Below are positions 8,795 through 60,417 of a stretch of DNA of 64,000 nt, in pieces. The notes under the pieces were generated by a model. It searched no databases. It saw only the letters and a program-made list of their open reading frames with translations, and had not been told where the DNA came from. Every line of letters begins with the position of its first letter. The first letter of the stretch is position 1. The translations under genes and the position numbers were made by a program. Source of the DNA: a virus; the IMG/VR virus record IMGVR_UViG_3300035703_000033, positions 45,616 to 109,615 of that record, one strand, 5' to 3'.

Positions 8795-9778
8795 ATGGCA
8801 GAGGTATTAAAAAATACAAACGCTCCAGTTTACCATCAGGTATTCTGGAAAGGCGGTGTACAGGATGCAGATGATCTACCAGTAGTTAAGGTATATGATA
8901 TTTCTGAAGATCCATTTACCGACTCTCCTTCTGAATCATACTATCTTTTAGATATAACTGCTGAAAAGGATGAAACAAACATAGGGCTGTATGCAGTTTA
9001 TATACCAGTGCTATACACATCAAGTAATGCTACTCTTAGATTAATGTGGCAGTATGAAGTTGAGTCACAAGAAATGGAATACAGCCATGATTTATTTGTG
9101 GTTACTCCGTATGCAGATTTATATCAAGCATCCAATATGCTTGGCATAAATACAGATCCATCAGACCCAAACTATAGGTCATATAAAGAACTAGCAGCGG
9201 CTGAAAGATATGCAAGAAAAAGAATTGAAAACGCTACTGGGCAAAAATTTTATCTATATAATGATGTTGCCAGAGTAATTGGCTATGGTTCAGATATTTT
9301 ACCATTACCAGAAAAAATATTTAGGTTAAGAAAATTATATATGAACGATATTCTAATGGTTGATAATGTTACATATCCAAATGTAAATAATTTTGGGTTC
9401 GATGTAGAAATTTCAGAGACTGGTTTTGGCTTAAGGATAAATAAATCCAGCTTACTTGATAACACGGTATATGTAGCAAATGGTATGGTTCCACCAACAA
9501 TACATGACTCAAGTGGTGTGTTTAAGAATAATGTTGAGTACGAGATACAGGCTACATTTGGATGGAAGAAGGTTCCAGACGAAATAGAATTAGCTGCTAT
9601 AGAGTTAATGAAAGACTTTTTCTCTAAAGACACTGTTTGGAAAAATCAATATATTAAAAATATACAGACATTTGACTGGCAGTTTGAGTATAACTCTGAT
9701 GTATTGAGTGGAACTGGAAATGCATATGCAGATAAGTTAATTTCTGGATATGTAATGGACAAGGTTGAAATAATATAA
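8795..9778 (+). CDS. head-to-tail adaptor
   Basis: AERYARKRIENATGQKF, FGWKKVPDEIELAAIELM; position after capsid. Confidence 0.7.
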   Translation: MAEVLKNTNAPVYHQVFWKGGVQDADDLPVVKVYDISEDPFTDSPSESYYLLDITAEKDETNIGLYAVYIPVLYTSSNATLRLMWQYEVESQEMEYSHDLFVVTPYADLYQASNMLGINTDPSDPNYRSYKELAAAERYARKRIENATGQKFYLYNDVARVIGYGSDILPLPEKIFRLRKLYMNDILMVDNVTYPNVNNFGFDVEISETGFGLRINKSSLLDNTVYVANGMVPPTIHDSSGVFKNNVEYEIQATFGWKKVPDEIELAAIELMKDFFSKDTVWKNQYIKNIQTFDWQFEYNSDVLSGTGNAYADKLISGYVMDKVEII

Positions 9779-10206
9779 TGTCATCCGTAATAGATGCCGT
9801 TTTATCCATGAGAATGGATGTATATAAACAAGTTGATTTGCAAGATCCAAATACTGGAGCATTAAAAAAAGAGTGGATGTTTGACAGAACAGTAGATTGT
9901 CACGCAAAAGGGGTTATAAGTAATTCCGCTACCTCAAGATCTAGCGATAAGCAAACCTTTGATAATAGATATTCTAATGATCAGGTTATACAGGTCAGAA
10001 CATCTGGTAGGATTACAGCAAGAGAAAAGATAACAAATATACAAAATAGAGAAGGTGTTTGTATATGGACAGAAATAAATTTTCCTAGCGACACTCCAAC
10101 AGTTTTTGAAGTAGTAGGAACAACTCCTATTACAGACCCCTTTGGCAGAGTTGTAGGATATAACTCTACAATGAAGAGGTCGGAGAATCAGCAAATTGGC
10201 ATCTAA
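9778..10206 (+). CDS. head-to-tail stopper/closure protein
   Basis: 142 aa, beta-rich, position in neck module. Confidence 0.6.
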   Translation: MSSVIDAVLSMRMDVYKQVDLQDPNTGALKKEWMFDRTVDCHAKGVISNSATSRSSDKQTFDNRYSNDQVIQVRTSGRITAREKITNIQNREGVCIWTEINFPSDTPTVFEVVGTTPITDPFGRVVGYNSTMKRSENQQIGI

Positions 10207-25475: not shown

Positions 25476-27668
25476 ATGGCATACGAAGATTTACTTAAGG
25501 ATACATCAGTTCAAAGCTCAGATCCTGGGTATTTCATTGTTACAATTACAGATCTTGATCCATTAAAGCTATACCCGCTTCAGTTAAGATGGAAGTATAA
25601 CGATAATACTTTTGGCCCATGGTCTGCTGTTAAATCAATAACAACTCCATCTGAAACAGTTCCATCAACTCCAAATTTAGGAGTCAGCGATGTTGTTGGC
25701 GGAAATGGTTATATAAAAATTACTTGGGATGGAAAAGATTCAAGCGGCAACCCAATACAAAATATTGACAGAGTTAATATACACATCTCTGGCGGTACAT
25801 TTGGTATAGGCACACAGGTCGTAGATTTTTTTAAAACAGCAGGAACAAAAACAATTGTTGCAGCTCCAGGAACATATATTGTTCAATTAAAATCTATAAC
25901 AGTAGCAAATACAACGTCATTCTTCAGCTTGTCTAGAACTGTAGAAGTTACAGGCACAGAAGACATAATATCTGATCCAGAAGATCCGTCAGCGCCAACA
26001 TTATCAGCTGGAAAGGCATCTATAATTGTAAGCTGGGACGGAAAGAATTCAAGCAATACAAATTTTACTGCAGGTAGCTTTTTTGGTGCAAAGGTATATA
26101 TTGGAAAAACTTCTAACTTTACTCCATCAGAAAATAATTGGGTTCATACACTAAACTTTGCAAATGGTTCCAACCAAGTCTCTATTGGTGTTGGAACAAT
26201 TATAGATAAGTCTACCTCAGAGTCTTTAGATTTTGATACAAATTACTATATTAAAATAGGTACACTAAACGCAAACGGTGAAACAACAGGAAACTTTATA
26301 TCAGCAACTGGGAACCCTATTCAAGTTGAAAAAACTGCGTTTAGCGAGATAGAGGCTGGTATCTTATCAGCAGATGCTTATATACAAGCAGGTCCATCAG
26401 GCGGGCAGAAGGTCATCCTTTCTGGAGGAGCTGAGCCTTTTGTTATATACGGCTCAGATGGTGTCACAAAACTTTTATCATTTCAATCTCAGTTGGGCGG
26501 TGTAGGAAAGTTAAGCATTATTGGATCTGGTACATTCACTGGAGATATTTCTGCTGCTACTGGAACGCTAACTAATGCTTTAAATATAGGAACGCCAAGC
26601 GGTGGACTTTACCCGTTTAGCGTTAGCTCTACTGGAGTTGTAAGAGCCATATCTGGAACTATTGGCGGAATGACACTAGCAGCTGATGGTATACAAAATA
26701 GTACAGGAAGCTTTAAGCTAGACACAGACGGTAAAGCAAAATTCGGTTCTATAGACATTTCTCCAACAATAGGTATTTATCATAATAGTGGATCATTTAG
26801 TCTTGGAGCAAATGGAAGTCTATCACTTACTGGAAGCGTTACAGCAACAGAAGGAAGTATAGCTAATTGGACAATAATTGGATCCACCTTAACTGCAAAT
26901 AACATAACGCTAGACGCATCTACTGGAACTATTTATTCAGGAAATTCTGCAGGATCTCATATTCAATTAAGTAATGCTTATGGCTTGCGACACATGAACA
27001 ATGCATCAACTACTGGAAACTTTGTTCTTACACCACTTGGTGATTTAACAATACGTGGAACAGTAACAGCAGTATCTGGTTATATTGGAACTCCAGAAAG
27101 TGGTTGGTATATAGATAGTGTGGGTATTAGAAACTCTCAATATGGAGTAACCCCAAACACGTTTTTATATAACCCAAATAGCTTTACCGATAATAATGTT
27201 ATATTTCAAATTGCTGATGCGGATAAGTTTAGTGTAACAAAGGCTGGAAATTTGACAGCTTCTAACGCAGACATATCTGGAACAATACGTGGTTCTGAAG
27301 TTATTGGTTCTACATTTTGGATTGGAGCAAATGCTAATTCTACTGATTATATAAATTGGGATGGTACGTTTAGCCTTGCAGGAGGAAGATTAGTTGGATC
27401 TCCATCTGTATTAACATTGAATCCAAATAAACTTGGTCCATCTCAATTTAAATTTTATTTAAACGCAGTAAGTAATGGCGACGGAACAGCTGGAGATAAA
27501 ACACTTGTTCAAGATGCAGATACAGGAGAAATAACATTAGGACGTGCATTCTTCTATGCTGGAAATCAATACCCAGATGGAAGAACAGATAGAAGTCAAT
27601 TTGCAGGTGGAGACCAAGGCTCTGGAGCATTTGATACTGGAGACATAATATTAAGTAGGAAAGCATAA
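25476..27668 (+). CDS. tail fibre/minor tail protein with FN3-like domains
   Basis: FN3-like N-terminal repeats; Gly/Ser/Thr-rich beta repeats (GTIGGMTL, GSIANWTI, ADISGTI). Confidence 0.7.
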   Translation: MAYEDLLKDTSVQSSDPGYFIVTITDLDPLKLYPLQLRWKYNDNTFGPWSAVKSITTPSETVPSTPNLGVSDVVGGNGYIKITWDGKDSSGNPIQNIDRVNIHISGGTFGIGTQVVDFFKTAGTKTIVAAPGTYIVQLKSITVANTTSFFSLSRTVEVTGTEDIISDPEDPSAPTLSAGKASIIVSWDGKNSSNTNFTAGSFFGAKVYIGKTSNFTPSENNWVHTLNFANGSNQVSIGVGTIIDKSTSESLDFDTNYYIKIGTLNANGETTGNFISATGNPIQVEKTAFSEIEAGILSADAYIQAGPSGGQKVILSGGAEPFVIYGSDGVTKLLSFQSQLGGVGKLSIIGSGTFTGDISAATGTLTNALNIGTPSGGLYPFSVSSTGVVRAISGTIGGMTLAADGIQNSTGSFKLDTDGKAKFGSIDISPTIGIYHNSGSFSLGANGSLSLTGSVTATEGSIANWTIIGSTLTANNITLDASTGTIYSGNSAGSHIQLSNAYGLRHMNNASTTGNFVLTPLGDLTIRGTVTAVSGYIGTPESGWYIDSVGIRNSQYGVTPNTFLYNPNSFTDNNVIFQIADADKFSVTKAGNLTASNADISGTIRGSEVIGSTFWIGANANSTDYINWDGTFSLAGGRLVGSPSVLTLNPNKLGPSQFKFYLNAVSNGDGTAGDKTLVQDADTGEITLGRAFFYAGNQYPDGRTDRSQFAGGDQGSGAFDTGDIILSRKA

Positions 27669-30600
27669 TGAGTTGGTGGAGAAAAGCAAGTTCTACCGAC
27701 ACGGGTAGTCATAATATAGATGGATGGATCAAAATACAGAGTATCTGGAGAAAAGCCAGCGCTTCTGATTCATACAACTCTTCACTAAGTACAAATCCTT
27801 GGGTAATAGATGGATGGCTTAGAATTAAAAGTGCTTGGAGGCACGAGGGTGGTGGAATTTGGTCAAGAATATTTAGTGCCTTAAGTGTTCCAATTCCAAA
27901 AGACCCATTACCTACATTATATTTTAAATGGCCAGATACATTTGAAACTACTGATTCTCCAATAAATGGCTCAAAGATGTTTGTAACAAGAGGAGCTTGG
28001 ACAGAAGAGCCAAATGAATTTAGAATAAGAATTCAGGAATTAGAGCCATACGGCACTTGGACTACAATATATGATACTACTAAAACATATACAGAATATT
28101 TAGAGTCAGATGATTTGGATAGATTCCCGTCAAATGCAAATGATTCATCTAGACCAACAATATCAAAGGCAAAGACCTTAGCTGGATATAAATTTAGAGC
28201 AAGGGTTGATGCTACTAATGTGAATAATGACACAAATTTTCATATTACAGATCCAATGATGCCAAGATTAGATTTTATAATATCTTCTTTAGTTGTAAAT
28301 TCAGAGACCTCATCTGGTGCAACATTTTCTTGGGACTATGCCCCGTATGTAAACTCTGGATCAATTAATTCATCAACAGACATATACTCTCAGGTTATAA
28401 CAATTTATGATGAGCTTGGAGATGAAGTTTATTCAGAATCAATTCCAGCAGGGACTACATATGTTATTCTTTCAAATGCAGCTTTGCTACCAGGCACTAC
28501 ATATACTGCAGAGTTATGGTCTATTGCGTACGACGGCTATGTTTTTGAAACAGATCAAACTTTTGATTTTACAAGTGTAGATTTTACTACAACTGATGCT
28601 ATACCAGAAATAGAAGTTAATCCAACCCTCACATTAATTTCTGGAGAATCTGCTTGCGTGGGTTCTGTTTATAGACTATCCAGTGGATCTTGGACAAATA
28701 ATCCAACAGGATTTAGATATTATTTTGATAGACAAAATTTTGCTGGTTCAAATATATTAACATATCCAAGTACTTCTACATATACTACTGATACATATTA
28801 TGACTATACTCTTGCAAGTGAAAATGCACAAGGAATAGATGCATATACAATTGCAGCAAATAATAATGGTGAAGCACAACTATATGCATATGCAACAAGC
28901 AGCATAACTGGGCCAATTAAATTACCAAGACCTACTGGTGTCTCTGCAACAGCATCTGGCTCTTCAATTAGTATAAGTTGGACCCCACACCCATCAGCTA
29001 CAAAATATAGAATTTATTGGGCTTCATCTTCAGCATACGAGCCTGGCCCAGCAAGTTCTTCTTTTGATGAAGAAAAAACCACCACTTCGTGGACATGGAG
29101 TTCAAGCGATCCAGATAAAAATGGAGTATCTCCATCTCAAGGTTCTTCATATGTTTTTTATGTTTCTCAATCTGTTGGAGGAACAATCTGGAGTAACTGG
29201 TCTACAGCTTCAGCTAGTGTAACAATGCCTTCAACTCCAGTAAATACATCAAGACCAGTATTTAGTTTACAGTCTGGTACAGCAAATAAAGTTGGATCCA
29301 CTTATAGATTATCTAGTGGATCTTGGGCAAATAATCCTACACCAACACAGTTTAGATATATACTAGAATTAAACAATGTTTCTGGCACACGTTTTGTGCA
29401 GTATCCGTCATCTACAGGATGGACAACAGACAGTTATTATGATCATACATTTTCTTCAAGCACATCCTCATCTATTTCTGGAGTAGTTGTTGCTTATAAT
29501 GGCTTGTCTGCAGAAGCTTATAGTACGACTAGTATTGGTCCAATTACATATCCAACATATACAATAACATATAATGGAAATGGCGGAACTCCAACAAGGT
29601 CTTCTGATATTGTAAATGCTGGTTCTTCAATTACTTTACCAAGTGCTTCAAGAAATTATAATACATTTTATGCATGGTATGATTCAGCAGTTGGTGGCTC
29701 ATATGTAGGGACTGCTGGAGCTACCTATACACCTACATCAGATATCACCCTATATGCTAGATGGACTCCAATAGAATGGACTGTAACCTGGAATGGAAAT
29801 GGAGGTACTGTAAATAATAATAATAGCAGCACTTATGCAGTTACATTTAATGCAGGTTCTACTCTTACAGCTCCATATGCAACTAGGGCGAACTATACAC
29901 ATACTGGTTGGCGTTACCCGTCGTCTGGAGATATTTGGTATAGCGCCTCACCAGGAGGCTCATTCACACCAGATAGTAGCATAATAATGTATGCAACATG
30001 GTCAAGGAATAGTTATTTCCTATATTATTCAGAAGAAGGTGGAACGGCAGTTTCAGATGCTACAGTATTGGCTGGAGATTCAACAACACTACCAGCAACT
30101 ACAAGAACTGGATATACGTTTAATGGTTGGTATAGCGATGGTATAAGGTTGGGAGGAGCTGGTTCTACTTATACGCCAACATCTAATATGACAATATATG
30201 CATCCTGGACACCAATACAATATACTGTAACTTGGAATGCAAATGGTGGCTCTGTAAGCCCAAGCAGCACTACAGGAAACTTTGATTCAGTTATATATGC
30301 CCCAACACCAACCAGGGCTGGGTATACCTTTTTATATTGGAGAGATGATACAAGAGCTCAAAATTATCTTTATCAGGTAAATGCAGGAGGTCAATGGACA
30401 ATTGCTGGAAATATTACATTCTATGCTATTTGGCAAGTTGCAATTCCGCCAACACCATCATGGGTAAGTGCTTCTACAGACAGAACTGATGGAATTAGAT
30501 TAGAGTGGGGTTTGATTGATGGAGCAACTTCTTATGAAATTTGGTGGGGATCTAGCGCACCTTCAGATAGTTTATCTACACCTGATTTTTATCCAGGCAA

Positions 30601-31306
30601 TACTTACTACTATTTAGATACATCAGTTAGTTCTGGTAGCTCTAGAACATACTATATTCGTGCAAGAAATTCAGCAGGAGCTTCATCTTGGTCTAGTGGA
30701 ATAACTGGAACTAGGGCGAACACACAATATACTGTAACTTGGAATGCCAACGGAGGTACTGGCGGAGGATCTACTACCCAAAATGCTGGAGTAGCACATA
30801 TAGCACCATCACCTGGAACCAGAACTGGCTATACTTTTAATGGATATTATGACAGAACATCTGGAGACTATTTATATGGACCAATTGCATCTGGTGGCTC
30901 ATTTAACCCGCCATCTTCAATTACAATGAGCGCAAGATGGTCATCAGCTACCACCACAACTACTACCACTACTACAACAACAACCACTACAACGTCATGC
31001 GTATGTAATTACTCAGATTATGGAACTTATTATTTCTCACCACAATGCTGTTCTGCTAATGCTCCGTACACGGGCCTCCCAGCTGGGCTTTCCCCAGGAT
31101 CTGGGTCATGTTGTCCAAATGTCAACAAGCCAGCTGCCACCACAACTACCACCACAACCACAACAACCACGGCAGCTCCATGTAATACCGTATATTGGAA
31201 ATGCAATTTAACAGATGTGCAAAATTATAGTAATCCATGTCAATTTGTTGGTCAATGTAGGTATGAGGGGAATGACTATTATTCTGCAGGATGTTGCTCA
31301 GTATGA
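27668..31306 (+). CDS. large tail fibre/receptor-binding protein: Ig/FN3 domains, InlB B-repeat (Listeria-Bacteroides) domains, poly-Thr tracts, Cys-rich C-terminus
   Basis: five YTxTx(N/S)xxGG...TRxGYTFxGW...TxYAxW repeats, two VGSxYRLSSGSW Ig-like repeats, FN3 (YYIRARNSAG), Thr15 and Thr11. Confidence 0.75.
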   Translation: MSWWRKASSTDTGSHNIDGWIKIQSIWRKASASDSYNSSLSTNPWVIDGWLRIKSAWRHEGGGIWSRIFSALSVPIPKDPLPTLYFKWPDTFETTDSPINGSKMFVTRGAWTEEPNEFRIRIQELEPYGTWTTIYDTTKTYTEYLESDDLDRFPSNANDSSRPTISKAKTLAGYKFRARVDATNVNNDTNFHITDPMMPRLDFIISSLVVNSETSSGATFSWDYAPYVNSGSINSSTDIYSQVITIYDELGDEVYSESIPAGTTYVILSNAALLPGTTYTAELWSIAYDGYVFETDQTFDFTSVDFTTTDAIPEIEVNPTLTLISGESACVGSVYRLSSGSWTNNPTGFRYYFDRQNFAGSNILTYPSTSTYTTDTYYDYTLASENAQGIDAYTIAANNNGEAQLYAYATSSITGPIKLPRPTGVSATASGSSISISWTPHPSATKYRIYWASSSAYEPGPASSSFDEEKTTTSWTWSSSDPDKNGVSPSQGSSYVFYVSQSVGGTIWSNWSTASASVTMPSTPVNTSRPVFSLQSGTANKVGSTYRLSSGSWANNPTPTQFRYILELNNVSGTRFVQYPSSTGWTTDSYYDHTFSSSTSSSISGVVVAYNGLSAEAYSTTSIGPITYPTYTITYNGNGGTPTRSSDIVNAGSSITLPSASRNYNTFYAWYDSAVGGSYVGTAGATYTPTSDITLYARWTPIEWTVTWNGNGGTVNNNNSSTYAVTFNAGSTLTAPYATRANYTHTGWRYPSSGDIWYSASPGGSFTPDSSIIMYATWSRNSYFLYYSEEGGTAVSDATVLAGDSTTLPATTRTGYTFNGWYSDGIRLGGAGSTYTPTSNMTIYASWTPIQYTVTWNANGGSVSPSSTTGNFDSVIYAPTPTRAGYTFLYWRDDTRAQNYLYQVNAGGQWTIAGNITFYAIWQVAIPPTPSWVSASTDRTDGIRLEWGLIDGATSYEIWWGSSAPSDSLSTPDFYPGNTYYYLDTSVSSGSSRTYYIRARNSAGASSWSSGITGTRANTQYTVTWNANGGTGGGSTTQNAGVAHIAPSPGTRTGYTFNGYYDRTSGDYLYGPIASGGSFNPPSSITMSARWSSATTTTTTTTTTTTTTTSCVCNYSDYGTYYFSPQCCSANAPYTGLPAGLSPGSGSCCPNVNKPAATTTTTTTTTTTAAPCNTVYWKCNLTDVQNYSNPCQFVGQCRYEGNDYYSAGCCSV
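30950..30994 (+). repeat. ACN codon tract encoding Thr15
   Basis: 15 consecutive Thr codons of mixed type (ACC/ACA/ACT/ACG). Confidence 0.9.
31139..31171 (+). repeat. ACN codon tract encoding Thr11
   Basis: 11 consecutive mixed Thr codons. Confidence 0.9.
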
Positions 31307-31318
31307 TGATAAATACTA

Positions 31319-31348
31319 TTGACAAAAATAATCTAAATTGGTAAAATG
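31319..31348 (+). promoter_or_regulatory. sigma70/HrdB-like promoter
   Basis: TTGACA then TGGTAAAAT, upstream of the 31354-32857 gene trio. Confidence 0.65.
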
Positions 31349-31353
31349 GCATA

Positions 31354-31713
31354 ATGTTATTAAGTAAAGATATTATTCACATAATAAATCCTGGGAATGA
31401 GCAATATTTTAATGAAGAGGTACATGTTGCCGCATGTTTTATTATTGATGATATAGTTGTTGAAAATGGTATGTATTCTAGAGAGTTTTTTGATTTGTTC
31501 AATAGATCTCATATTGAAGAAAAAGAACAATATGAAAACGGAGATATACGCATTGCATTAACAGAAAGCGGTAGTGTGGAAAAACAACACATGATATTAG
31601 ATGAAAGGCTTGCTTCTATAATGTTAAGTAATCCACAGTTAATTGAAGTCCCAGAAAATATGCGATGGGTTACAATTGGGTCTCAATATATAGATGGAGT
31701 GTTCTATCCATGA
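31354..31713 (+). CDS. hypothetical protein (fibre-associated)
   Basis: ACFIIDDIVV..DERLASIMLSNP..IGSQYIDGVF, a type often seen after fibre genes. Confidence 0.6.
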   Translation: MLLSKDIIHIINPGNEQYFNEEVHVAACFIIDDIVVENGMYSREFFDLFNRSHIEEKEQYENGDIRIALTESGSVEKQHMILDERLASIMLSNPQLIEVPENMRWVTIGSQYIDGVFYP

Positions 31714-31964
31714 CAGAAAAAACTAAATGGGAACAGTATTTAGAAAAGCAAAAAGATAAAAGTCCAAATAAATCTGTAAAGCCGTGGGATTTAATAAATC
31801 CAAATACAGAATATGTGGATAAAGAAATTTCAGCACAAAGATATGAAATTTGTAAGCAGTGTCCTGAGCTTTTTGATTTAACAAAACAGTGTAAAAAATG
31901 CGGATGCTTTATGGCATTAAAAACTAAGCTGACAGAGGCTACATGCCCTATAGGTAAATGGTAA
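31710..31964 (+). CDS. small Cys-rich protein (DUF6171-like)
   Basis: RYEICKQCPEL..QCKKCGCFM..KTKL..ATCPIGKW; ATGA overlap start at 31710. Confidence 0.7.
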   Translation: MTEKTKWEQYLEKQKDKSPNKSVKPWDLINPNTEYVDKEISAQRYEICKQCPELFDLTKQCKKCGCFMALKTKLTEATCPIGKW

Positions 31965-32857
31965 TGTCTAGTATATTTGTTCAAATACCATCTTATCATG
32001 ATTATGAATTAAAAAGAACTATTGTTGATGCCATAAAACAAAGCTCTGGATCACATATAATTAATTTTGGAGTTCATGTTACATATTTTGACAATATTGA
32101 TTTTGATATTCCAGACCTTCCAAATGTAAGGCTAGAGATATCCAAAGCTCCTAAAAATATTGGAGTCGGAGCTAGCAGGTATATAGCAAATTCACTATAT
32201 TCTGGGGAAGACTATTACTTGCAAATAGATTCTCATATGAGGTTTGAAAAAAATTGGGATCATAATTTAATTACAGATTATCTTGATAAAAAAGCACATG
32301 GAGCAAATCCAGTAATATCCGCCTACCCAGGGGCATATGAGTACAATAATGGTAGCCTCAATATACTAAATAGCAAAGCACATGTTGCATATACAGATTT
32401 TATTCAGGAGTTAAGTTTTCAGGGAGATGTTGTTCCGCATCAAAGAGCCGTAGGTAATTTCTCCAATAATATTTTTACTAGATCTGTTTCTGCTGCATCT
32501 ATTTTTTCAGATGGATCAATTGCGTCCATAAAGCCAAACAAAAAGATATTTTTCTGGGGAGAAGAGATATTAACTGCCGTAAGGCTTTTTACACATGGGT
32601 ATGACCTCATGCTTCCAGTTTCTCAAAACCTATATCATCTTTATTACAAGCCAGAAGATGGGTTTAAAAATTTAAGAAGGCAGGTTGGGGTAGATTTTGA
32701 ACAAGAATCTATCTTAATGGATATAGAGTCAAAAAAGGAAATAGAATCGATTATTTTGAACAATATTGTTGGGGAGTATGCGCTGGGCAGCTCTAGGACC
32801 TTGGCTGATTACCAAGAGTATGCTAGAATAGATTTTACCAATAAGGTAATTCTTTAA
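31958..32857 (+). CDS. GT60-like glycosyltransferase (Skp1-hydroxyproline/polypeptide GlcNAc-transferase family)
   Basis: SIFVQIPSY..EL..TI, GVGASR, YYLQIDSHMRF..WD, VISAYP, FWGEEI..AVRLFTHGYD, YHLY. Confidence 0.85.
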   Translation: MVMSSIFVQIPSYHDYELKRTIVDAIKQSSGSHIINFGVHVTYFDNIDFDIPDLPNVRLEISKAPKNIGVGASRYIANSLYSGEDYYLQIDSHMRFEKNWDHNLITDYLDKKAHGANPVISAYPGAYEYNNGSLNILNSKAHVAYTDFIQELSFQGDVVPHQRAVGNFSNNIFTRSVSAASIFSDGSIASIKPNKKIFFWGEEILTAVRLFTHGYDLMLPVSQNLYHLYYKPEDGFKNLRRQVGVDFEQESILMDIESKKEIESIILNNIVGEYALGSSRTLADYQEYARIDFTNKVIL

Positions 32858-53221: not shown

Positions 53222-53295
53222 GCACCAGTAGCTTAGTTGGTTAGAGCCCCGAACTCATAATTCGGTAGTCGTAGGTTCAAGTCCTACCTGGTGCA
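53222..53295 (+). tRNA. tRNA with CAT anticodon (Ile2 or elongator Met)
   Basis: GCACCAG/CTGGTGC acceptor, CCGAA-CTCATAA-TTCGG anticodon arm, GTAGG-TTCAAGT-CCTAC T arm. Confidence 0.92.
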
Positions 53296-53308
53296 CAAAA
53301 GGAGAATA

Positions 53309-53626
53309 ATGGAAGACGAAGAATATCTTGAAAGATTAAAACACTATATTGAAATAGGTGCTATACGTGAGGCTGGCATAGATCAAAATGGTGAAGTTAT
53401 TTTTGAGATAGATGAAGAGCATACAAAAGAATTAGCTCCAGAGCTATGGGAAGCCCACATGGAATATATAGATAACTCTTTTTTAGAATTATACAAAGAT
53501 GGTTTAGTAGAAGTGGAATATGATGAAGAGCTTAATGCAATAATGCATTTAACAAAAGAAGGATATAGCATAGCTTTAGAAAAGGGGTTGATTCCAGTAG
53601 ATATGGACGAGATTCCAGACAATTAA
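53309..53626 (+). CDS. acidic hypothetical protein
   Basis: AAGGAG RBS supports ATG 53309 (track start lies inside the tRNA). Confidence 0.7.
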   Translation: MEDEEYLERLKHYIEIGAIREAGIDQNGEVIFEIDEEHTKELAPELWEAHMEYIDNSFLELYKDGLVEVEYDEELNAIMHLTKEGYSIALEKGLIPVDMDEIPDN

Positions 53627-53627
53627 C

Positions 53628-54026
53628 ATGAATTTTGAATCAGAAGTTTTTGACAATAGAAGATTTTTATTTCAAAATATAGCAAAGTCGTTCCCAAATA
53701 ATCCGTGGGTAATTAAAGCTACAGAAAAAATGAAAAGTTATTCTAAGGATGAATATGCTAGAATGTTAGAGGAGGCATATGATTTTCAGGATAAATTTGA
53801 TAAAGCGGTAGAGCTTGGTACATCTGCAAAAACAGCAGATGGACACGAGCTGTTTATTTTATTTATTAAGCATATAAATTGGTTTTTTGAGATAGATAAA
53901 TATGCGTACGACGAGCTAATACAGCTATGTAGTCCGAATACTAATCAATTTCTTTTAGTTAATAAATCATATTCAGATTTATTATTTGATATTCTCACAG
54001 AATATAGATTGGAGTTAAATATATAA
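53628..54026 (+). CDS. TipAS-like helical protein
   Basis: YSKDEY..E..F..AVELGTSA..GHEL..HINWFF..Y..L pattern resembles the TipAS antibiotic-recognition domain. Confidence 0.4.
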   Translation: MNFESEVFDNRRFLFQNIAKSFPNNPWVIKATEKMKSYSKDEYARMLEEAYDFQDKFDKAVELGTSAKTADGHELFILFIKHINWFFEIDKYAYDELIQLCSPNTNQFLLVNKSYSDLLFDILTEYRLELNI

Positions 54027-54985
54027 TGAAGGCTATTGTAGTTAAGTCGTTTGGCGGACCAGAAGTAATGGAGTATACTGAGTATCGTGACCCTACTCCC
54101 AGAGGTGATCAGATTTTAGCAGAGACCAGGATGATAGGCGTTAATTATGCAGACACGTATCAAACAGAAAATACATATTTAGTTCAATCTCTACCCCCAG
54201 TTATACCTGGAATTGAAGCTTCTTTTTATATAGATGGAAAGCTTTTTGTTGGTAATACAGCAAGCGGTTCTTATGCAGAAAAGGTTATTGTTAATAAAGA
54301 TAGAATATTTGAGGTGCCAGATGGTATCTCTGAAGAAGAAGCGCTAGCTTCAGTGGTTCAAGGGACTACGGCTTATGCTATAGTGAACGATTTGTGCGAT
54401 ATCAAGCCAGATGATTTAGTTTTGATAAATGGAGCGTCTAGCGGAACTGGAGTTTTTTTAATACAGCTATGTAAGCTGCTCGGAGCTAAAGTTATAGCAG
54501 TGACTGCCGATGGTGAAAAGCTAGAATTTGTAAAAACACTAGATGTAGATTTTGCTTGTAAAAATGATTTATCTGAAATAAAAAAACTAATAAAATCTAT
54601 TGGAAAGAAACCAAAATTTATTTTAGAGTCATACGGAGGGACACAGTTTATGGACTACTACAACATGCTTGATGTCGGTGGCCATATTTGTTCATATGGG
54701 GCATCCTCAAGAGAGGGTTTGCCAAATATTAATGTTCGTGATCTTATTAAGGATACAAGATTAGTATCTGGATTTTGGGGCACAAAGGTATTTCAAGATA
54801 CAGATAAGCTAAAATCAGTAATAAATAGCTTATTTGATTTAATTAAAAACAAAAAAATAAAAGTTGTTTTAGGCGATACAATGAGTTTAAAAGATGCGAA
54901 GTTAATGCATGAAAAAATAAGAAGTAGAAATACTGTTGGAAAGCTTATATTAATTAATAATTTAGGAAATAAAAGTGATTCCTAA
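54026..54985 (+). CDS. NADPH:quinone oxidoreductase (zeta-crystallin/Qor, MDR family)
   Basis: MKAIVVKSFGGPEV, IGVNYAD, PGIE, VLINGASSGTG, TVGKLIL. Confidence 0.88.
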   Translation: MKAIVVKSFGGPEVMEYTEYRDPTPRGDQILAETRMIGVNYADTYQTENTYLVQSLPPVIPGIEASFYIDGKLFVGNTASGSYAEKVIVNKDRIFEVPDGISEEEALASVVQGTTAYAIVNDLCDIKPDDLVLINGASSGTGVFLIQLCKLLGAKVIAVTADGEKLEFVKTLDVDFACKNDLSEIKKLIKSIGKKPKFILESYGGTQFMDYYNMLDVGGHICSYGASSREGLPNINVRDLIKDTRLVSGFWGTKVFQDTDKLKSVINSLFDLIKNKKIKVVLGDTMSLKDAKLMHEKIRSRNTVGKLILINNLGNKSDS

Positions 54986-55799
54986 AGATCAACATAATGT
55001 ATTTCATAAAAGATATTACGGAAATTTAAATCCAAATATTGAAGAGGAAAACTTATTTTATGAAAATGATTTAGAGCTAAAACAAAAAGATAAAATATTA
55101 TATAAATATAATAATGAAGGTTTTAGATGTGATGATTTTACTAAAGAAAAAAATGGATTACATATTTTATTTGCAGGATGTTCAGAAACTGAAGGTGCTG
55201 CAAATAAACTTGAAGATGTATGGGCTTATGTTCTTTATAATAAAATTAAAGAAACTCACAGCGTAGCAGGATATTATAATGTTGGAAAATCTGGGCTTAC
55301 TGTATCTGCAATCATAATGAATGTATTCCAGTATATCTACGATTACGGTTATCCAAATTATATATTTTTACAGTTACCAGATCAAACGAGGTATGTTACC
55401 TGGGATGAAGAAAACTATTACCACCCAAAATATCCAATTCGAGGTGAAGAAATAGATAAATATGGTAAAGATGTTTATTTTAAAAATCATGATAATTTAC
55501 CAGTAATGAAAATAAATTTATTATATAACTATTTTTTATTAAAAAATTTAATTCAAGTTTGTGAGCTAAATAATACTAAAATAATATGGTCTACTTGGCA
55601 TCCAGATACAGTTAAATGGATAATTCCAGAACTAAAAAAACTAAACGGGTACATAGAAACAGGCAATAATACAAAGGATGCCTGGGATATTAAATTAAAT
55701 GAGTTAAAGGCAAGAGATGGATGGCATTTTGGTAAGGGTTTTCATAAATTGTGGGCAAAAAAATTTTATGAGGAGTTTTTAAATGTTCAAAATAATTAG
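54975..55799 (+). CDS. SGNH-like hypothetical protein
   Basis: YKYNNEGFRCDDF, ILFAGCSETEG, NVGKSG, C-terminal ARDGWHFG. Confidence 0.55.
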   Translation: MIPKDQHNVFHKRYYGNLNPNIEEENLFYENDLELKQKDKILYKYNNEGFRCDDFTKEKNGLHILFAGCSETEGAANKLEDVWAYVLYNKIKETHSVAGYYNVGKSGLTVSAIIMNVFQYIYDYGYPNYIFLQLPDQTRYVTWDEENYYHPKYPIRGEEIDKYGKDVYFKNHDNLPVMKINLLYNYFLLKNLIQVCELNNTKIIWSTWHPDTVKWIIPELKKLNGYIETGNNTKDAWDIKLNELKARDGWHFGKGFHKLWAKKFYEEFLNVQNN

Positions 55800-55859
55800 A
55801 AGAATGATAGTTAAAAGAAAAGTAAAAAAAATGCTTAAAAAAAATAGGTATACATACTA

Positions 55860-57296
55860 ATGATAATTTTAGGAATTAACGAAACATCTCATGATGCATC
55901 TGTTTCTTTAATAAAAGATGGACAAATACTGTTTTCTGCTCATGCAGAAAGATATAGTAAAATTAAAAATGATTGGTATAACAATCAAGATATCTATCAA
56001 GATATGCTTAATTACGGAACACCAACACACATAGCTTATTATGAAAGACCTCAATTAAAAAGATCAAGATTGCTACTTCGTGGTGGAGCTGGAGAATGGA
56101 AGCCAAATATTCCTATGAATTTACCAGTCAAATACTTTTCTCATCATCATTCTCATGCAGCAGCTGGCTACTATACAAGTAGGTTTGATGACGCAGTTAT
56201 TGTCGTTTTAGATTCAATTGGAGAATATAATACTTCTACCGTGTGGGTTGGAGAAGGTGAAAGTATTAAATTAAAATTTAAACAAAATTATCCAGTTAGC
56301 TTTGGATTATTCTATTCAGCATTTACTCAATTAGTTGGTCTTATGCCAAATCAAGAAGAGTATATTCTCATGGGTATGGCTGGATATGGTGATCCTAATA
56401 AATATTTAAAAAAAGTCTTAGAATACTTTCCTTCGCCGTACCAACAAAAATATAATTTTCATAAGGGTATACATGATTGGGGCGTAATATCAGGAGATCA
56501 AGATAGATTTGATATAGCTGCAGCTGTTCAAGTTGTTTATGAAAGTAATTTAATGCAATTTATGAATATGGCAAAATCTATAACTGGCAAAGATAATTTG
56601 GTTTTTATGGGAGGTTGTGCATTAAATTGTTCTGCTAATACAAAGCTATGGAAAATATTTAAGGATATTTGGATTATGCCAAACCCAGGGGATGCTGGTA
56701 GTTCATTAGGTGCAGCAGCTGCTTTATATGGTAAGCATATAAAATGGAATGGACCGTACCTTGGTACAGATATTAGTGGTGCTTGGCCAAGACATGAAAT
56801 ATTAAAAGAGTTAAAAGAAAATAAAATAGTAGCTGTAGCCTCTGGACGAGCAGAATATGGTCCAAGAGCTTTAGGAAATAGAAGCATACTAGCAGATCCA
56901 AGGGATCCAAATATTAAAGATAAAGTTAATCAAATTAAACAAAGAGAAAAATTTAGACCGTTTGCTCCAGTTGTTTTAGAGCATTTTGCACACGAGTGGT
57001 TTGATATGCCTACTAGATCTACTCCTTATATGCAGTATGCTATTAGATGTAAACAGCCTGATAAAATACCATCAGTTGTGCATATTGATGGCACATCAAG
57101 AGTTCAAACTGTTAATGAGTATAATCATCCTGAGCTACACATGCTACTAAGACAATGGTACTGGGAAACTGGTGTTCCAGTTTTATTAAATACTAGTTTA
57201 AACATAAAAGGACAACCACTCCTTAATGATCAAAATGATATAATTGAGTGGCAAAATAAGTACGACGCTAAGATATATGGAGGAAATAATGTTTAA
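55860..57296 (+). CDS. O-carbamoyltransferase (NodU/CmcH/TobZ family)
   Basis: HDAS, ERYSKIK, HHHSHAA, LDSIGE, MGMAGYG, GGCALNC, GDAG, EYGPRALGNRS, RPFAP, LLNTSLN. Confidence 0.92.
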   Translation: MIILGINETSHDASVSLIKDGQILFSAHAERYSKIKNDWYNNQDIYQDMLNYGTPTHIAYYERPQLKRSRLLLRGGAGEWKPNIPMNLPVKYFSHHHSHAAAGYYTSRFDDAVIVVLDSIGEYNTSTVWVGEGESIKLKFKQNYPVSFGLFYSAFTQLVGLMPNQEEYILMGMAGYGDPNKYLKKVLEYFPSPYQQKYNFHKGIHDWGVISGDQDRFDIAAAVQVVYESNLMQFMNMAKSITGKDNLVFMGGCALNCSANTKLWKIFKDIWIMPNPGDAGSSLGAAAALYGKHIKWNGPYLGTDISGAWPRHEILKELKENKIVAVASGRAEYGPRALGNRSILADPRDPNIKDKVNQIKQREKFRPFAPVVLEHFAHEWFDMPTRSTPYMQYAIRCKQPDKIPSVVHIDGTSRVQTVNEYNHPELHMLLRQWYWETGVPVLLNTSLNIKGQPLLNDQNDIIEWQNKYDAKIYGGNNV

Positions 57297-58125
57297 TGAA
57301 CAATTTAGGAAAAATCCAAACATCATACAGTTGGCTCCTAAATTATTTATTTATAAAAATTTTATAAATGGAGATTTATTAGAAAAAATAAATAATATTT
57401 GCAAGGGTCACATCAAGGATGTACCGATAAGTCATAATATTGATTGGTATCAGAATAGAACAACATCCTTGGTATTTGATTTGCTTGAGGTATGGGAGCA
57501 AGCTAGCGAGCTAATTTACCCAGATTTGGTAATGCATCCGCAAGCTTCAATGCTTATTAGCAGGCCAGGAGATGGCGGTATGTTTACACATGCTGATGCA
57601 CCAGGTCAGCCTCACGAAGACTGTGGCCCCGTTTGTGGCACATGTGAAATAGCTTCTGCAAAATTGATTTCAGAAGATAGATGGAATACATGCTGTAGAT
57701 TACACTACGGTTTAGTTATATATTTTGGTGACTGGTCAGGCGGAGAAATATTCTATGACCATATAAATAAAGATGGAGAATATGTTTCAGAGGAGATAGT
57801 GTTATCTGAAGATGAAAAGTTAACTATAAAGCCAGAAAATGGTGACTTAGTTATACACGGCGCACATGGAGATTATGCACATGGCACAAAAGAAGTTACA
57901 GATGGAGTTAGATTTGCATTTTCTAATTTTGTTCTTCCAGCTCACACTAACCCAGGCACTTTTTATAACTACAAAACCAAAGAGTATCTAGATCAAATCG
58001 AAGAGGTAAAAAAGAAAAAAGATATAAAGCTTTGGCTAAAGATTATGAATGAGTTCTCTTGGCAAGATCCACCAGAGGTATTAGAAGAAAAAGAAAAGGG
58101 CATAAGTGGTATCAGGTACAGGTAG
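57289..58125 (+). CDS. 2OG-Fe(II) oxygenase with Cys-rich insertion
   Basis: MFTHAD, YGLVIYF..GGEIFY, KPENGDLVIH, YAHGT, GVRF; insert CGPVCGTC..WNTCC. Confidence 0.8.
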   Translation: MFNEQFRKNPNIIQLAPKLFIYKNFINGDLLEKINNICKGHIKDVPISHNIDWYQNRTTSLVFDLLEVWEQASELIYPDLVMHPQASMLISRPGDGGMFTHADAPGQPHEDCGPVCGTCEIASAKLISEDRWNTCCRLHYGLVIYFGDWSGGEIFYDHINKDGEYVSEEIVLSEDEKLTIKPENGDLVIHGAHGDYAHGTKEVTDGVRFAFSNFVLPAHTNPGTFYNYKTKEYLDQIEEVKKKKDIKLWLKIMNEFSWQDPPEVLEEKEKGISGIRYR

Positions 58126-58169
58126 TATCTATAGACAAAATCTGTCTTAATTGCTACAATATACTCGTT

Positions 58170-58242
58170 GCCTCTGTAGCTCAGCGGATAGAGCGAGACT
58201 CTTCTAAGGTCTGCGTCGGAGGTTCGATTCCTTCCAGGGGCG
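58170..58242 (+). tRNA. tRNA-Arg(TCT)
   Basis: GCCTCTG/CAGGGGC acceptor, AGACT-CTTCTAA-GGTCT, GGAGG-TTCGATT-CCTTC; promoter-like TAGACA..TGCTACAAT upstream. Confidence 0.92.
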
Positions 58243-58277
58243 CAACTTTTTACTGTTAATTTTGATAAGGTGGTTTT

Positions 58278-59033
58278 ATGAAGAATTTATATATTATAGG
58301 AGACTCTCATTCTGTAAGAATGGGGCAAGGCCTCTTTGATAATATAATAAAAAAAATGAGTATATCAGAACCTTATTCAATATATACTACGGAAGGCATA
58401 GATAAGTTATTAAAAAAAGATGATGAGGGAAATCCGATTAGACAAAAGCATGAAGTTAGAACTATTAATTTTAAAAATAGATCTATAACATGCGCCTCAT
58501 ATTTAGGCAGATCAGCTTTAAGATTTGACTATAAACTTAATAGGTATATGAATTTTTGGGATGACGAGGACAGCACCGTAATGCCGTGGCTGGGGTATAT
58601 AGATGTAAAAAATTATTTGCCTAATAAAAAATTAAAAAAATATGTACCAGTACATGATGTAGTAGATACATACGTAGAAAATACTCTTAAAAGTTTTAAA
58701 AAATCAAAATTAATTTTTATTAATCCCATGCCACAGTTTGAGGTTATAGTAACAGCAAGATGGAAAAATTTTTCTGTAGATCCAGATATTCCATTTGAAG
58801 ATAGGCATGAAGAACATTTATTATTTTCTAAAGCTTTAAAAGAAAAGTGTTTATCTGTCGGTCTAGAAGAGCCGATAATGATAGAAAAAATTTTAAATGT
58901 TCCTTGGATAGGAACTACTATGCAGTATAAAACTCCATTAGAATATATATATAATGATCATTGTACCCCAGAGTATTATGATAGAATATTAGAACATATA
59001 TTAGATCATACTGGATTTAATATTGGTCCATAG
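58278..59033 (+). CDS. SGNH/GDSL-like hypothetical protein
   Basis: LYIIGDSHS, WLGYID, C-terminal YNDHCTPE. Confidence 0.5.
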   Translation: MKNLYIIGDSHSVRMGQGLFDNIIKKMSISEPYSIYTTEGIDKLLKKDDEGNPIRQKHEVRTINFKNRSITCASYLGRSALRFDYKLNRYMNFWDDEDSTVMPWLGYIDVKNYLPNKKLKKYVPVHDVVDTYVENTLKSFKKSKLIFINPMPQFEVIVTARWKNFSVDPDIPFEDRHEEHLLFSKALKEKCLSVGLEEPIMIEKILNVPWIGTTMQYKTPLEYIYNDHCTPEYYDRILEHILDHTGFNIGP

Positions 59034-59096
59034 CTCAGTTGGTAGAGCGTCGAACTGTTAATTCGAATGTCGCAGGATCGAGACCTGCTGGACCAG
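59024..59096 (+). tRNA. tRNA-Asn(GTT)
   Basis: TGGTCCA/TGGACCA acceptor, TCGAA-CTGTTAA-TTCGA, GCAGG-ATCGAGA-CCTGC. Confidence 0.88.
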
Positions 59097-59100
59097 CAAG

Positions 59101-59173
59101 GCCCTTATAGCCCAGCGGTAGAGGCGGTAGACTTAAAATCTATATAGCGTTGGTTCGAATCCAACTAGGGGCA
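59101..59173 (+). tRNA. tRNA-Leu(TAA), short variable arm
   Basis: GCCCTTA/TAGGGGC acceptor, GTAGA-CTTAAAA-TCTAT, GTTGG-TTCGAAT-CCAAC. Confidence 0.88.
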
Positions 59174-59209
59174 CAAATGATATAATTAACAAATAGAGAA
59201 GGAGCATAT

Positions 59210-59362: not shown

Positions 59363-60356
59363 AATTTCAAAAATATTTATTGCCATAACAAGCGCTAATG
59401 AAAAAGACTTAAAGCAAACTGTTTTGAGTGCTATAAAAAACTCAGATGATCCAGACAGTTTAGTTTTTGGTATTTTTGATTTATGTATGAATGGGTTCCC
59501 GCAAACAGATTTTACAGAATTTAAAAACGTTATATATATGCCAATGATTTTTAGCGGTACCCAAGGAATAGGATTAGCCCGACTTATAACATCTTCTATA
59601 ATAACTCCAGATTGTGATTATGTTTTACAGCTTGATTCTCATATGTTGTTTACTAAATCTTGGGATACAAAAATAAAAAATAGATATAAGGATTTAGAAT
59701 CTAAATATAACAAACCAATAATAAGTTCAAGATGTAATTATTGGGAATACGATAATGAAATGAATATAGTTGTAGATGGTAAAGTTGTTGAAGATATATA
59801 TAATTTTGAGTATAATAGTAATTCTCCTGTTTCAAAGTTAGTCTTTAAAGACTACCAGACTTCTTTATTTCAAGACGGATACCCAACTATAACTGGGATC
59901 GATACTGAAGAAATGGTATATGCTGAGCATAGCTTGATATCCGCACAGTTTACATTTAGTAGGCCAGATCTGTACTCAGAAATAGTTCATGACCCCAGAC
60001 TTCCTTGGGGAGGAGATGAGCCAATATATTCTCTAAGGGCATGGACAAGAGGCTATCAAATGTTTTCAATTCAAGATACAATATGTTTTCACTATAATAA
60101 GAACACCATGACTGCTGGTTATAATAAAGATAATCAAGAGGATTGGAGAAATTTAAAAAATAATGATAATAGGCTTTTTAAGCTATATCAAAAAAGATAT
60201 AATGATGGGCTGACTATAATGAAAGACATATTGCTTGGAAACTATTTGGGGTATTGGGGAGCTGAGTCTCTATCAGAATTAAAAGATTTTGAAAGTGCTT
60301 GCGGTATTAGTTTTAACGATTTTTATTCTACCAAAAAATCTGCTTTTATGATATAA
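59358..60356 (+). CDS. second GT60-like glycosyltransferase; start probably non-canonical, upstream of TTG 59424
   Basis: IFIAITS..DLKQTV, GIGLAR, YVLQLDSHMLF..WD, WGGDEP..SLRAWTRGY, CFHY; paralog of 31958-32857. Confidence 0.8.
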   Translation: MKISKIFIAITSANEKDLKQTVLSAIKNSDDPDSLVFGIFDLCMNGFPQTDFTEFKNVIYMPMIFSGTQGIGLARLITSSIITPDCDYVLQLDSHMLFTKSWDTKIKNRYKDLESKYNKPIISSRCNYWEYDNEMNIVVDGKVVEDIYNFEYNSNSPVSKLVFKDYQTSLFQDGYPTITGIDTEEMVYAEHSLISAQFTFSRPDLYSEIVHDPRLPWGGDEPIYSLRAWTRGYQMFSIQDTICFHYNKNTMTAGYNKDNQEDWRNLKNNDNRLFKLYQKRYNDGLTIMKDILLGNYLGYWGAESLSELKDFESACGISFNDFYSTKKSAFMI

Positions 60357-60361
60357 TAACT

Positions 60362-60417
60362 TTAGGTTGCCGAATGGGACCTAATTTAATTTATTCGCTT
60401 AAAGGAGGAATAAAATG
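60362..60417 (+). promoter_or_regulatory. ROSE-like RNA thermometer candidate in hsp20 5' UTR
   Basis: upstream hairpin TTAGGT..ACCTAA, then TTTATTC-G(bulge)-CTT/AAAG/GAG-GAATAAA sequestering SD; contains UCGCU. Confidence 0.55.

Follow-up and report, generated by a model that had tools for sequence, protein, structure and literature searches.

The DNA studied here is a 64,000-nucleotide (nt) stretch (the window) forming the right-hand part of a 109.6-kb IMG/VR virus record (IMGVR_UViG_3300035703_000033), whose completeness was estimated at 92%. Its source is probably an uncultured freshwater phage with an actinobacterial host. In the window, a tail fibre gene encoding two threonine (Thr) tracts near the protein's end is followed by a cassette of three genes, the last of which encodes a glycosyltransferase (GT) of family GT60. 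GT homologues at least 38% identical to this enzyme were named GT60-A, and those of 36% identity or less were named distant GT60. In a sample of about 160 related phage fragments, GT and tract were nearly always found together. Among the loci fetched with the GT as query, a Thr-run protein was encoded just upstream of the GT in nearly all GT60-A loci and in none of the loci with a distant GT60. With moderate confidence, we propose that the cassette is a phage protein O-glycosylation module, in which GT60-A would put O-linked N-acetylhexosamine (HexNAc) on the Thr linkers of the fibre in the cytoplasm. What we infer in this proposal is that transfer takes place, which sugar is used, which residue accepts it and how the phage benefits.

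The glycosyltransferase and its neighbouring tail fibre

The enzyme and its candidate substrate are located as follows (aa, amino acids; ORF, open reading frame).

27668-31306, + strand: tail fibre of 1212 aa, final gene of the tail module (ORF, Pfam Flg_new match and gene order)
30950-30994, + strand: Thr15 tract, aa 1095-1109, first candidate acceptor linker (mixed ACN codons, conserved position)
30995-31138, + strand: knob 1, about 48 aa with 6 Cys in the pattern C-x-C ... CC ... CC (Cys conserved across homologues)
31139-31171, + strand: Thr11 tract, aa 1158-1168, KPAA-T11-AAP, second candidate acceptor linker (mixed ACN codons)
31172-31303, + strand: knob 2, terminal 44-aa module with 6 Cys (Cys positions, homologue comparison)
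31958-32857, + strand: GT60-A glycosyltransferase, a soluble GT-A enzyme of 299 aa, or 297 aa if the ATG at 31964 is the start (PF11397)

The sole Pfam match of the GT was PF11397 (GlcNAc), with an E value of 2.4e-36 and 126.4 bits against a cut-off of 21, and the match covered positions 99-351 of the 352-position profile. A six-frame profile search of the genome also placed PF11397 above its cut-off. Pfam PF11397 was treated as the equivalent of CAZy GT60. A preliminary description of this DNA, made from the sequence alone, had called the enzyme GT60-like and suggested a PF11397 profile search; that search agreed with it, and no non-GT60 family appeared as the best match. The same description had placed a GT with IFVQIxSY, QIDSHMRF and GEE motifs about 650 bp downstream of the fibre. 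The gene begins 652 bp past the fibre stop, and its motifs read IFVQIPSY, QIDSHMRF and WGEE. Five residues were invariant in 29 GT homologues, namely D91 and H93 of the DxH motif (D91-S-H93), G201 and E203 of W200-G-E-E203, and H227. GT27 enzymes have a D-S-H metal motif and a WGGE-type motif.

The 3D structure of the GT was modeled using AlphaFold 2 (AF2). The model (predicted local distance difference test score (pLDDT) 94.6, predicted template modeling score 0.93) is a single globular domain, with the first β-strand from residue 5. A Foldseek search with the model returned polypeptide N-acetylgalactosamine (GalNAc)-transferases at the top (E = 1e-10). A VIA fold search of 48,161 chains gave mouse GalNAc-T1 (8v9q) with a Z score of 21.1 over 265 residues and Toxoplasma gondii GalNAc-T3 with a Z score of 19.3; the next GT-A families followed at Z scores of 17.0 and below. 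We take all VIA matches listed (Z ≥ 9.8) to be GT-A-type glycosyltransferases. No N-terminal hydrophobic or membrane segment was found in the GT sequence or model. As a type II membrane anchor is absent, the GT is expected to act in the bacterial cytoplasm. A ricin-type lectin domain was excluded because 299 aa leave no space for it. A tblastn search of phage records with the GT returned nothing but GTs of 25-28% identity from jumbo phages of Xanthomonas and Stenotrophomonas. By its profile match and predicted fold, the GT is a member of PF11397/GT60 with an intact catalytic motif set, and its fold is closest to those of mucin-type initiating transferases.

The 1212-aa protein is encoded after the tape-measure, minor-tail and tail-protein genes. 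It contains five Listeria-Bacteroides (Flg_new) repeats (Pfam, E = 1e-33), and the fibre protein had no direct PHROG match. Genes at the same position in two relatives without the GT (L094 and L109) terminate in a Peptidase_S74 domain, an intramolecular chaperone domain that is a tail-fibre hallmark. The protein is thus classed as a tail fibre on sequence grounds, being the product of the last large tail gene, having modular repeats and showing the hallmark in same-position relatives.

The final 118 residues of the fibre consist, in order, of Thr15, a 48-aa 6-Cys module, Thr11 and a 44-aa 6-Cys module. Thr15 lies in the context SSA-T15-SCVC, with no proline (Pro) next to it. ACC, ACA, ACT and ACG codons are all mixed in both tracts, and Tandem Repeats Finder detected only imperfect period-3 arrays with 77-80% matches in the tract DNA. 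The ORF translation and the codon check were in line with the earlier claim that the fibre ends in Thr15 and KPAA-Thr11-AAP tracts built from mixed ACN codons. In the whole 109.6-kb genome, Thr runs of at least 6 occur only in the fibre (Thr15 and Thr11). Thr15 is far beyond chance, as the fibre composition is just 14% Thr.

Eleven homologous fibres share this layout. The tract at the Thr15 position was kept, with lengths from T9 to T16. The tract at the Thr11 position was variable in length; it was present in most homologues and missing from L011-L013. A 10-kb region was compared with that of the nearest relative. Identity was mostly 97-100% and fell to 76-90% in the fibre repeat region. The most divergent stretch was that of knob 1 (30992-31141, 150 nt), with 57% identity, and the blastn alignment broke exactly between 31050 and 31138. 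The divergence of knob 1 is compatible with a tip under diversifying exchange, and the Thr-tract DNA may be a boundary for knob swapping.

Association of GT60-A with threonine tracts

To compare loci, 79 viral loci were fetched starting from the GT. Further loci were collected with two neutral anchors, a tail protein and a conserved metallophosphoesterase encoded downstream of the slot that the cassette occupies after the last fibre gene; the latter anchor matched more than 550 stretches. Runs of at least 8 Thr were found in 24 of the 1458 distinct proteins (at least 80 aa) from 116 viral loci, and all 24 were encoded within 6.5 kb upstream of a GT60-A gene. Counted by locus, such runs were present in 38 of 54 GT60-A loci, 0 of 32 distant GT60 loci and 0 of 30 syntenic GT-less loci. 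Among the phosphoesterase-anchored loci in which the slot was covered (n = 111), 23 had both the GT and the poly-Thr tract, 4 had the GT only, none had the tract only, and 84 had neither. A looser measure (at least 10 Thr per 15-aa window) gave 39/51 for GT60-A loci, 1/88 for GT-less loci and 0/23 for distant GT60 loci.

The linkage of Thr tract and GT was kept over GT identities from 38% to 100%. The Thr-tract proteins are fibre-like, range from 196 to 1245 aa and carry at least six different tip modules; the Thr tract is their common feature. An attempt to treat them as unrelated families was abandoned, because 20 of 22 fell together on single-linkage clustering; repeat modules that they have in common may be the reason, for instance the fn3 domains present in several of them. 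Varied architectures are claimed instead. As a separate observation, a PPFFPFFPP- or APPFFPP-type motif directly follows the tract in the Thr-tract proteins of L016, L023, L028, L029 and L032.

The two halves of the tip were separable in some loci. One clade (L017, L020 and L089-L093) has the GT and Thr tracts, and the Cys knob is absent. Nine GT-less loci have Cys-rich fibres together with DUF6171, the small protein encoded directly upstream of GT60-A in most loci, and the Thr tract is absent. The GT thus tracks the Thr tract, and DUF6171 tracks the Cys-rich modules. DUF6171 was present in 21 of 24 loci with at least 5 Cys per 50-aa window versus 0 of 71 loci without (loci including L095-L104, L312 and L318). 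This distribution suggests that DUF6171 probably serves the Cys-rich knobs, perhaps by folding or cross-linking them, rather than the sugar step.

Bacterial GT60 homologues (58 loci, 25-31% identity) had no Thr runs nearby, with one exception. A 6-kb contig binned with a Cyclobacteriaceae metagenome-assembled genome (MAG) encodes a Thr14 protein, DUF6171 and a GT60-A of 42% identity (L119:412-2580). This contig probably derives from a phage and was assigned to the MAG in error.

The converse relation was examined by a reverse search, in which IMG/VR was scanned for (ACN)12 and records with the tract in an ORF of at least 150 aa were taken. Among the matches listed, the lone positive (L184) encodes Thr14, DUF6171, a gap of radical S-adenosylmethionine (radical-SAM) enzyme size, GT60-A and a protein like prolyl 4-hydroxylase (P4H).

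Several results weigh against a coupling of enzyme and tract. PF11397 was present in only 1 of 40 poly-Thr viral records among the matches listed, although these records were often fragmentary. The general rule that poly-Thr implies GT60 was dropped on this count; the relation is that GT60-A implies an adjoining Thr tract, not the converse. One GT60-A locus (L019) had no Thr-rich protein nearby and is a clear exception, and several other GT60-A loci had only short or patterned T/A/P linkers. Most of the apparent exceptions carry TTTAAP, ATT or TTAA repeats ahead of a Cys-rich end. On the tail-protein tree, the GT changed at least 6 times and the tract 5 times, and the 4 independent pairs were not significant. 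On the phosphoesterase tree, the GT changed 11 times and the tract 10 times. In 6 supported independent pairs that differ in the GT, the tract went the same way in 4-5 and the opposite way in 0 (sign test, p ~0.125). The phylogenetically independent contrasts were too few for significance, and the test was underpowered. Moreover, the genes are adjacent, and linkage by itself would make them come and go together. Two further points of this kind concern the proteins. PDB sequence and profile searches with the GT found no match at the sequence level, so there is no close characterised enzyme and solved enzymes were compared by fold alone. For a 150-aa C-terminal piece of the fibre (12-row alignment), AF2 gave a poor model with a mean pLDDT of 57.8, in which regular structure was not predicted for the Thr tracts.

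The preliminary description had proposed to test whether GT60 genes co-occur with Thr/Ser/Pro-tract fibres. Co-occurrence held for GT60-A, which tracks the tracts (23/4/0/84), and it did not hold in the reverse direction (1/40 among the matches listed) or reach significance in the contrasts. The persistence of the association over GT divergence and varied fibre architectures is a stronger argument than the contrasts.

These results also bear on the best-surviving alternative, that there is no enzyme-substrate link. The Thr tracts would then be flexible linkers or recombination handles for knob swapping, and the GT cassette would be a linked accessory set with another target. Such a reading would fit the many poly-Thr viral proteins without a GT60 on the same record among the matches listed, the non-significant contrasts, and the exchange of the knob between the tracts among near-identical phages. 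It does not fit the zero count of Thr tracts in 84 GT-less relatives, or a linkage that persists from 38% to 100% GT identity and across differing fibre architectures. The reverse search also yielded an independent instance (L184), and another is found on the L119 contig. We regard this alternative as unlikely.

Proposed mechanism, alternatives and known systems

In the proposed O-glycosylation module, a soluble GT60-A would be expressed late, under its own promoter, from a position directly behind the fibre gene. The enzyme would transfer HexNAc onto Thr residues of both linkers in the host cytoplasm, and the acceptor would be the newly made tail fibre. The bacterial cytoplasm normally supplies UDP-N-acetylglucosamine (UDP-GlcNAc), not UDP-GalNAc. 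The sugar would most likely be GlcNAc, drawn from the abundant UDP-GlcNAc pool. The glycosylated linkers would become extended, protease-resistant, mucin-like stalks, and these stalks would hold out the two small Cys-rich knobs, the likely receptor-binding tip. The idea of a glycosylated mucin-like fibre stalk, already put forward in the preliminary description, is partly supported: family, predicted fold and co-occurrence fit it, and the one-way association and the underpowered corrected test do not add to it. Its further elements, namely sugar transfer, GlcNAc as the sugar, Thr as the acceptor, and stiffening or shielding of the tip, are likewise what we infer.

The GT might instead modify a host envelope glycan or receptor, acting against re-adsorption or superinfection, and travel with the tip through shared receptor specificity. 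Phage GTs that alter host surfaces are well known (reviewed in PMC12619734, which cites Markine-Goriaynoff 2004). The joint exchange of the cassette and the fibre C-terminus and the hypervariable knob 1 would also be explained. However, the feature common to GT60-A neighbours is the Thr tract and not a given tip domain, at least six tip types being found. The nearest folds and the characterised members of the family are polypeptide transferases, and the GT is soluble with no membrane segment. This alternative comes second, and we consider it unlikely as well.

The acceptor could also be hydroxyproline (Hyp), as in the Skp1/Gnt1 pathway, or another residue near the tracts, modified after the action of a phage 2-oxoglutarate (2OG) oxygenase; the Thr tracts would then be a spacer. 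GT60 does include the Hyp-specific Gnt1 (PMC6939170). Pro very often flanks the Thr tracts of relatives (P-Tn-AAP), some 20 loci have a P4H-like gene no more than 10 kb from GT60-A, and the window genome has a P4H-like gene at 60889-61452. The tree of GT homologues points the other way. GT60-A formed a clade with 100% support in the Shimodaira-Hasegawa-like approximate likelihood ratio test (SH-aLRT) and a long stem, and every P4H (PF13640) fusion fell in one separate clade (99% SH-aLRT). The GT60 domains of these fusions, one of which is an oomycete protein, had 26-32% identity. GT60-A was never fused to PF13640. A search of ORFs and Pfam matches found no P4H gene within the window cassette, and the cassette of the window's clade is without one. 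Thr15 has no adjacent Pro, and the GT-less loci with a (TPAV)8 linker described below have P4H-like and JmjC-like genes but no GT. By these sequence features, the separate clade and the Pro-free first tract favour Thr over Hyp as the acceptor, and we place Hyp third, as an improbable acceptor.

We think it very unlikely that the GT glycosylates residues of the Cys-rich knobs, through S- or O-links as in glycocins, or another virion protein. The GT is missing from nine loci that have Cys-rich fibres and DUF6171, and the clade of L017, L020 and L089-L093 combines the GT with Thr tracts in the absence of a Cys knob. These loci stand against the facts that Cys-rich knobs accompany most Thr tracts, that SunS-type S-glycosyltransferases share the GT-A fold (Z = 11.1), and that a PqqD-GT60 fusion exists in another clade. 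Glycosylation of phage DNA (hypermodified bases) can practically be dismissed: many phage GTs act on DNA (PMC12619734), but PF00303 (thymidylate-synthase-like pyrimidine hydroxymethylase) is absent from the 92%-complete genome while control genomes match, the GT gene lies among the late structural genes, and polypeptide acceptors are what its family and fold suggest.

For the favoured protein O-glycosylation module, several known systems offer comparisons. Streptococcal and staphylococcal serine-rich repeat (SRR) adhesins receive cytoplasmic O-GlcNAc on Ser/Thr repeat stalks, and the GtfA/GtfB genes adjoin the substrate gene. The phage arrangement is similar in that the enzyme gene lies next to a repeat-stalk substrate gene, with cytoplasmic coating proposed for the phage. 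It differs in that GtfA/B are GT-B enzymes (GT4-type) acting on a bacterial surface adhesin, whereas the phage enzyme is a GT-A enzyme of GT60 and its candidate substrate is a virion fibre. The GT27 GalNAc-transferases (mouse GalNAc-T1 (8v9q), human GalNAc-T2 and T. gondii GalNAc-T3) gave the best structural matches, but they share only 11-15% sequence identity with the phage GT and no HMMER-level similarity, and the phage GT is without a lectin domain.

GT60 enzymes, which are related to GT27 and lack its lectin domain, use GlcNAc to begin mucin-type chains in protists (PMC8724618). The protist polypeptide α-GlcNAc-transferases of Dictyostelium and Trypanosoma cruzi resemble the phage GT in having PF11397, a GT-A fold with DxH and no ricin-type lectin domain. 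They act on Thr/Ser-rich mucin domains, and the window GT adjoins Thr tracts. The protist enzymes differ in being Golgi type II membrane proteins, whereas the phage GT is a soluble protein of 299 aa in its own clade (GT60-A), expected in the bacterial cytoplasm. GT60 also holds the Skp1 Hyp-GlcNAc transferase Gnt1, which, like the phage GT, is cytoplasmic and soluble (PMC6939170). The Skp1 pathway combines the prolyl hydroxylase PhyA with Gnt1; phage GT60-A differs from it by its separate clade without P4H fusion, the lack of a P4H gene in the cassette, and a candidate acceptor that is Thr, not Hyp.

In mycobacteriophages, phage-encoded GTs glycosylate the C-termini of capsid and tail-tube subunits (Freeman et al. 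2023, as summarized in PMC12619734). As far as that summary goes, both cases involve GTs encoded by actinobacteriophages, here a probable one, with the phage's own virion proteins as target, here a candidate target. They differ in that capsid and tail-tube C-termini are modified in mycobacteriophages, whereas the candidate here is a tail-fibre linker that pairs GT60 with homopolymeric Thr.

Literature searches turned up no account of GT60/PF11397 in phages or in connection with poly-Thr fibres, nor any paper about DUF6171 or DUF7164. This is consistent with the earlier statement that such an enzyme-substrate cassette is not known from phages. To our knowledge, the only phages whose particles have been shown to carry glycosylated proteins are a few mycobacteriophages. 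The pairing reported here joins a defined enzyme subfamily with a simple candidate substrate, a homopolymeric Thr linker encoded in the adjacent fibre gene, and the uncultured freshwater phages in which it is found belong to a very abundant group (the anchor gene matched more than 550 stretches). If the proposed reaction takes place, mucin-type O-glycosylation, which has been thought a trait of the eukaryotic secretory pathway, would extend to a soluble setting in the bacterial cytoplasm. Glyco-engineering would also gain a small polypeptide HexNAc-transferase, of 299 aa, whose acceptor tag (Tn) is trivially simple. A sugar coat on the fibre stalks of environmental phages would be suggested as well, and in lakes this would matter for adsorption, for resistance to proteases and for how sticky virions are.

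The cassette, the exchangeable slot and the genome

Three elements lie between the fibre and the GT gene.

31319-31347, + strand: promoter-like site TTGACA-17-TAAAAT with extended TG (consensus match only)
31354-31713, + strand: orf119, first cassette gene (ORF, without family match)
31710-31964, + strand: DUF6171, a small CxxC protein of 84 aa if the ATG at 31710 is the start (PF19668, E = 2.9e-7; phrog_13558, E = 1.3e-16)

The promoter-like site starts 13 bases past the fibre stop. Its score of 11/12 is the best in the region, and the number of such sites in the region was no higher than in shuffled sequences. The -10 element ends 6 nt ahead of the ATG at 31354, which is a leaderless-type arrangement. 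The cassette genes are translationally coupled, with overlaps at ATGA (31710-31713, orf119 and DUF6171) and at TAATG (31962-31966, DUF6171 and GT). Because of the promoter-like site ahead and the overlapping starts and stops, a three-gene unit is a fair description, as had been claimed along with a TTGACA/TAAAAT promoter of its own. The downstream neighbour of the GT gene is preceded by its own strong Shine-Dalgarno sequence. In GT-less relatives, the fibre gene directly adjoins the gene that follows the GT in the window, indicating that the three genes are an inserted cassette. The DUF6171 gene most likely starts at 31710 rather than 31665.

The product of orf119 had no Pfam or PHROG match. 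It was conserved, with 53-66% identity, in L004-L014 and L046. Its nearest named Atlas clusters were tail-fibre assembly proteins at a score of 0.80, a weak lead only, and it may be a fibre assembly factor.

In relatives, the slot is shared by radical-SAM/SPASM, P4H-like and DUF7164 enzymes. At least 13 protein clusters, among them P0122, P0124-P0127, P0130-P0133 and P0136-P0138, have GT60-A and DUF7164 (PF23741) joined in one protein. In L020, DUF7164 (9121-10005) and GT60-A are separate adjacent genes. Since DUF7164 has weak Galactosyl_T similarity, it is probably a second, chain-extending transferase. Radical-SAM/SPASM enzymes are a class of peptide-modifying maturases. In several phages, a gene of this class lies directly upstream of GT60-A and downstream of a Cys-ended protein with Thr/Pro linkers.

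L027:5297-6310: radical-SAM/SPASM gene
L029:8881-9996: radical-SAM/SPASM gene
L034:8926-9996: radical-SAM/SPASM gene
L038:2120-3151: radical-SAM/SPASM gene
L040:9033-10001: radical-SAM/SPASM gene

A different set was found in GT-less L098 (13025-17060), and also in L097 and L107. The fibre there has (TPAV)8 followed by a Cys knob homologous to knob 2. After the L098 fibre, DUF6171, a P4H-like oxygenase (PF13640, E = 6e-15) and a JmjC/cupin protein are encoded. Linker chemistry and enzyme type seem to be matched.

A broader reading of the slot is possible, and we offer it only tentatively. In this large group of phages, the slot after the last fibre gene might hold sets of enzymes for post-translational modification that are exchanged and that suit the chemistry of the tip. 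Poly-Thr linkers would be paired with GT60-A, alone or together with DUF7164, Pro-rich (TPAV)n linkers with P4H-like and JmjC-like enzymes, and Cys knobs with DUF6171, alone or together with radical-SAM/SPASM enzymes. The products would be mucin- or extensin-like stalks with cross-linked mini-knobs. Eukaryote-style matrix chemistry would then take place in the bacterial cytoplasm and would be swapped as linker-plus-enzyme units.

In another clade, a protein (P0161) has its GT60 domain fused to a PqqD-like domain (PF05402). PqqD is the peptide-recognition element of pathways for ribosomally synthesized and post-translationally modified peptides. This fusion hints that some prokaryotic GT60s act on leader-tagged peptides.

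The genome is of the siphovirus type, and in it portal, protease, major capsid and minor tail proteins and a 2164-aa tape-measure ORF were identified. The major capsid protein was 58% identical to Streptomyces phage counterparts. The genome has a WhiB gene (G000:C1:361-534), and the WhiB family matched only Corynebacterium among 14 control genomes. Because the capsid resembles those of Streptomyces phages and a WhiB gene is present, the phage host is probably an actinobacterium by these sequence markers. The leaderless-type promoter layout and the WhiB gene are both compatible with such a host. A blastn search of the region against 50,697 phage records returned nothing beyond one 82-nt match.

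Three further genes are located in the right arm.

59424-60356: second PF11397 paralog, very divergent, 27 kb downstream (E = 1.4e-21)
60415-60831: HSP20 gene, after the second GT60 paralog
60889-61452: P4H-like 2OG-Fe(II) oxygenase, about 28 kb from the cassette (PF13640)

In the tree, the second GT60 paralog was on a long branch and belonged neither to the GT60-A clade nor to the P4H-fused one. Four tRNA genes (Met, Arg, Asn and Leu) are located near this paralog, at 53222-59174.

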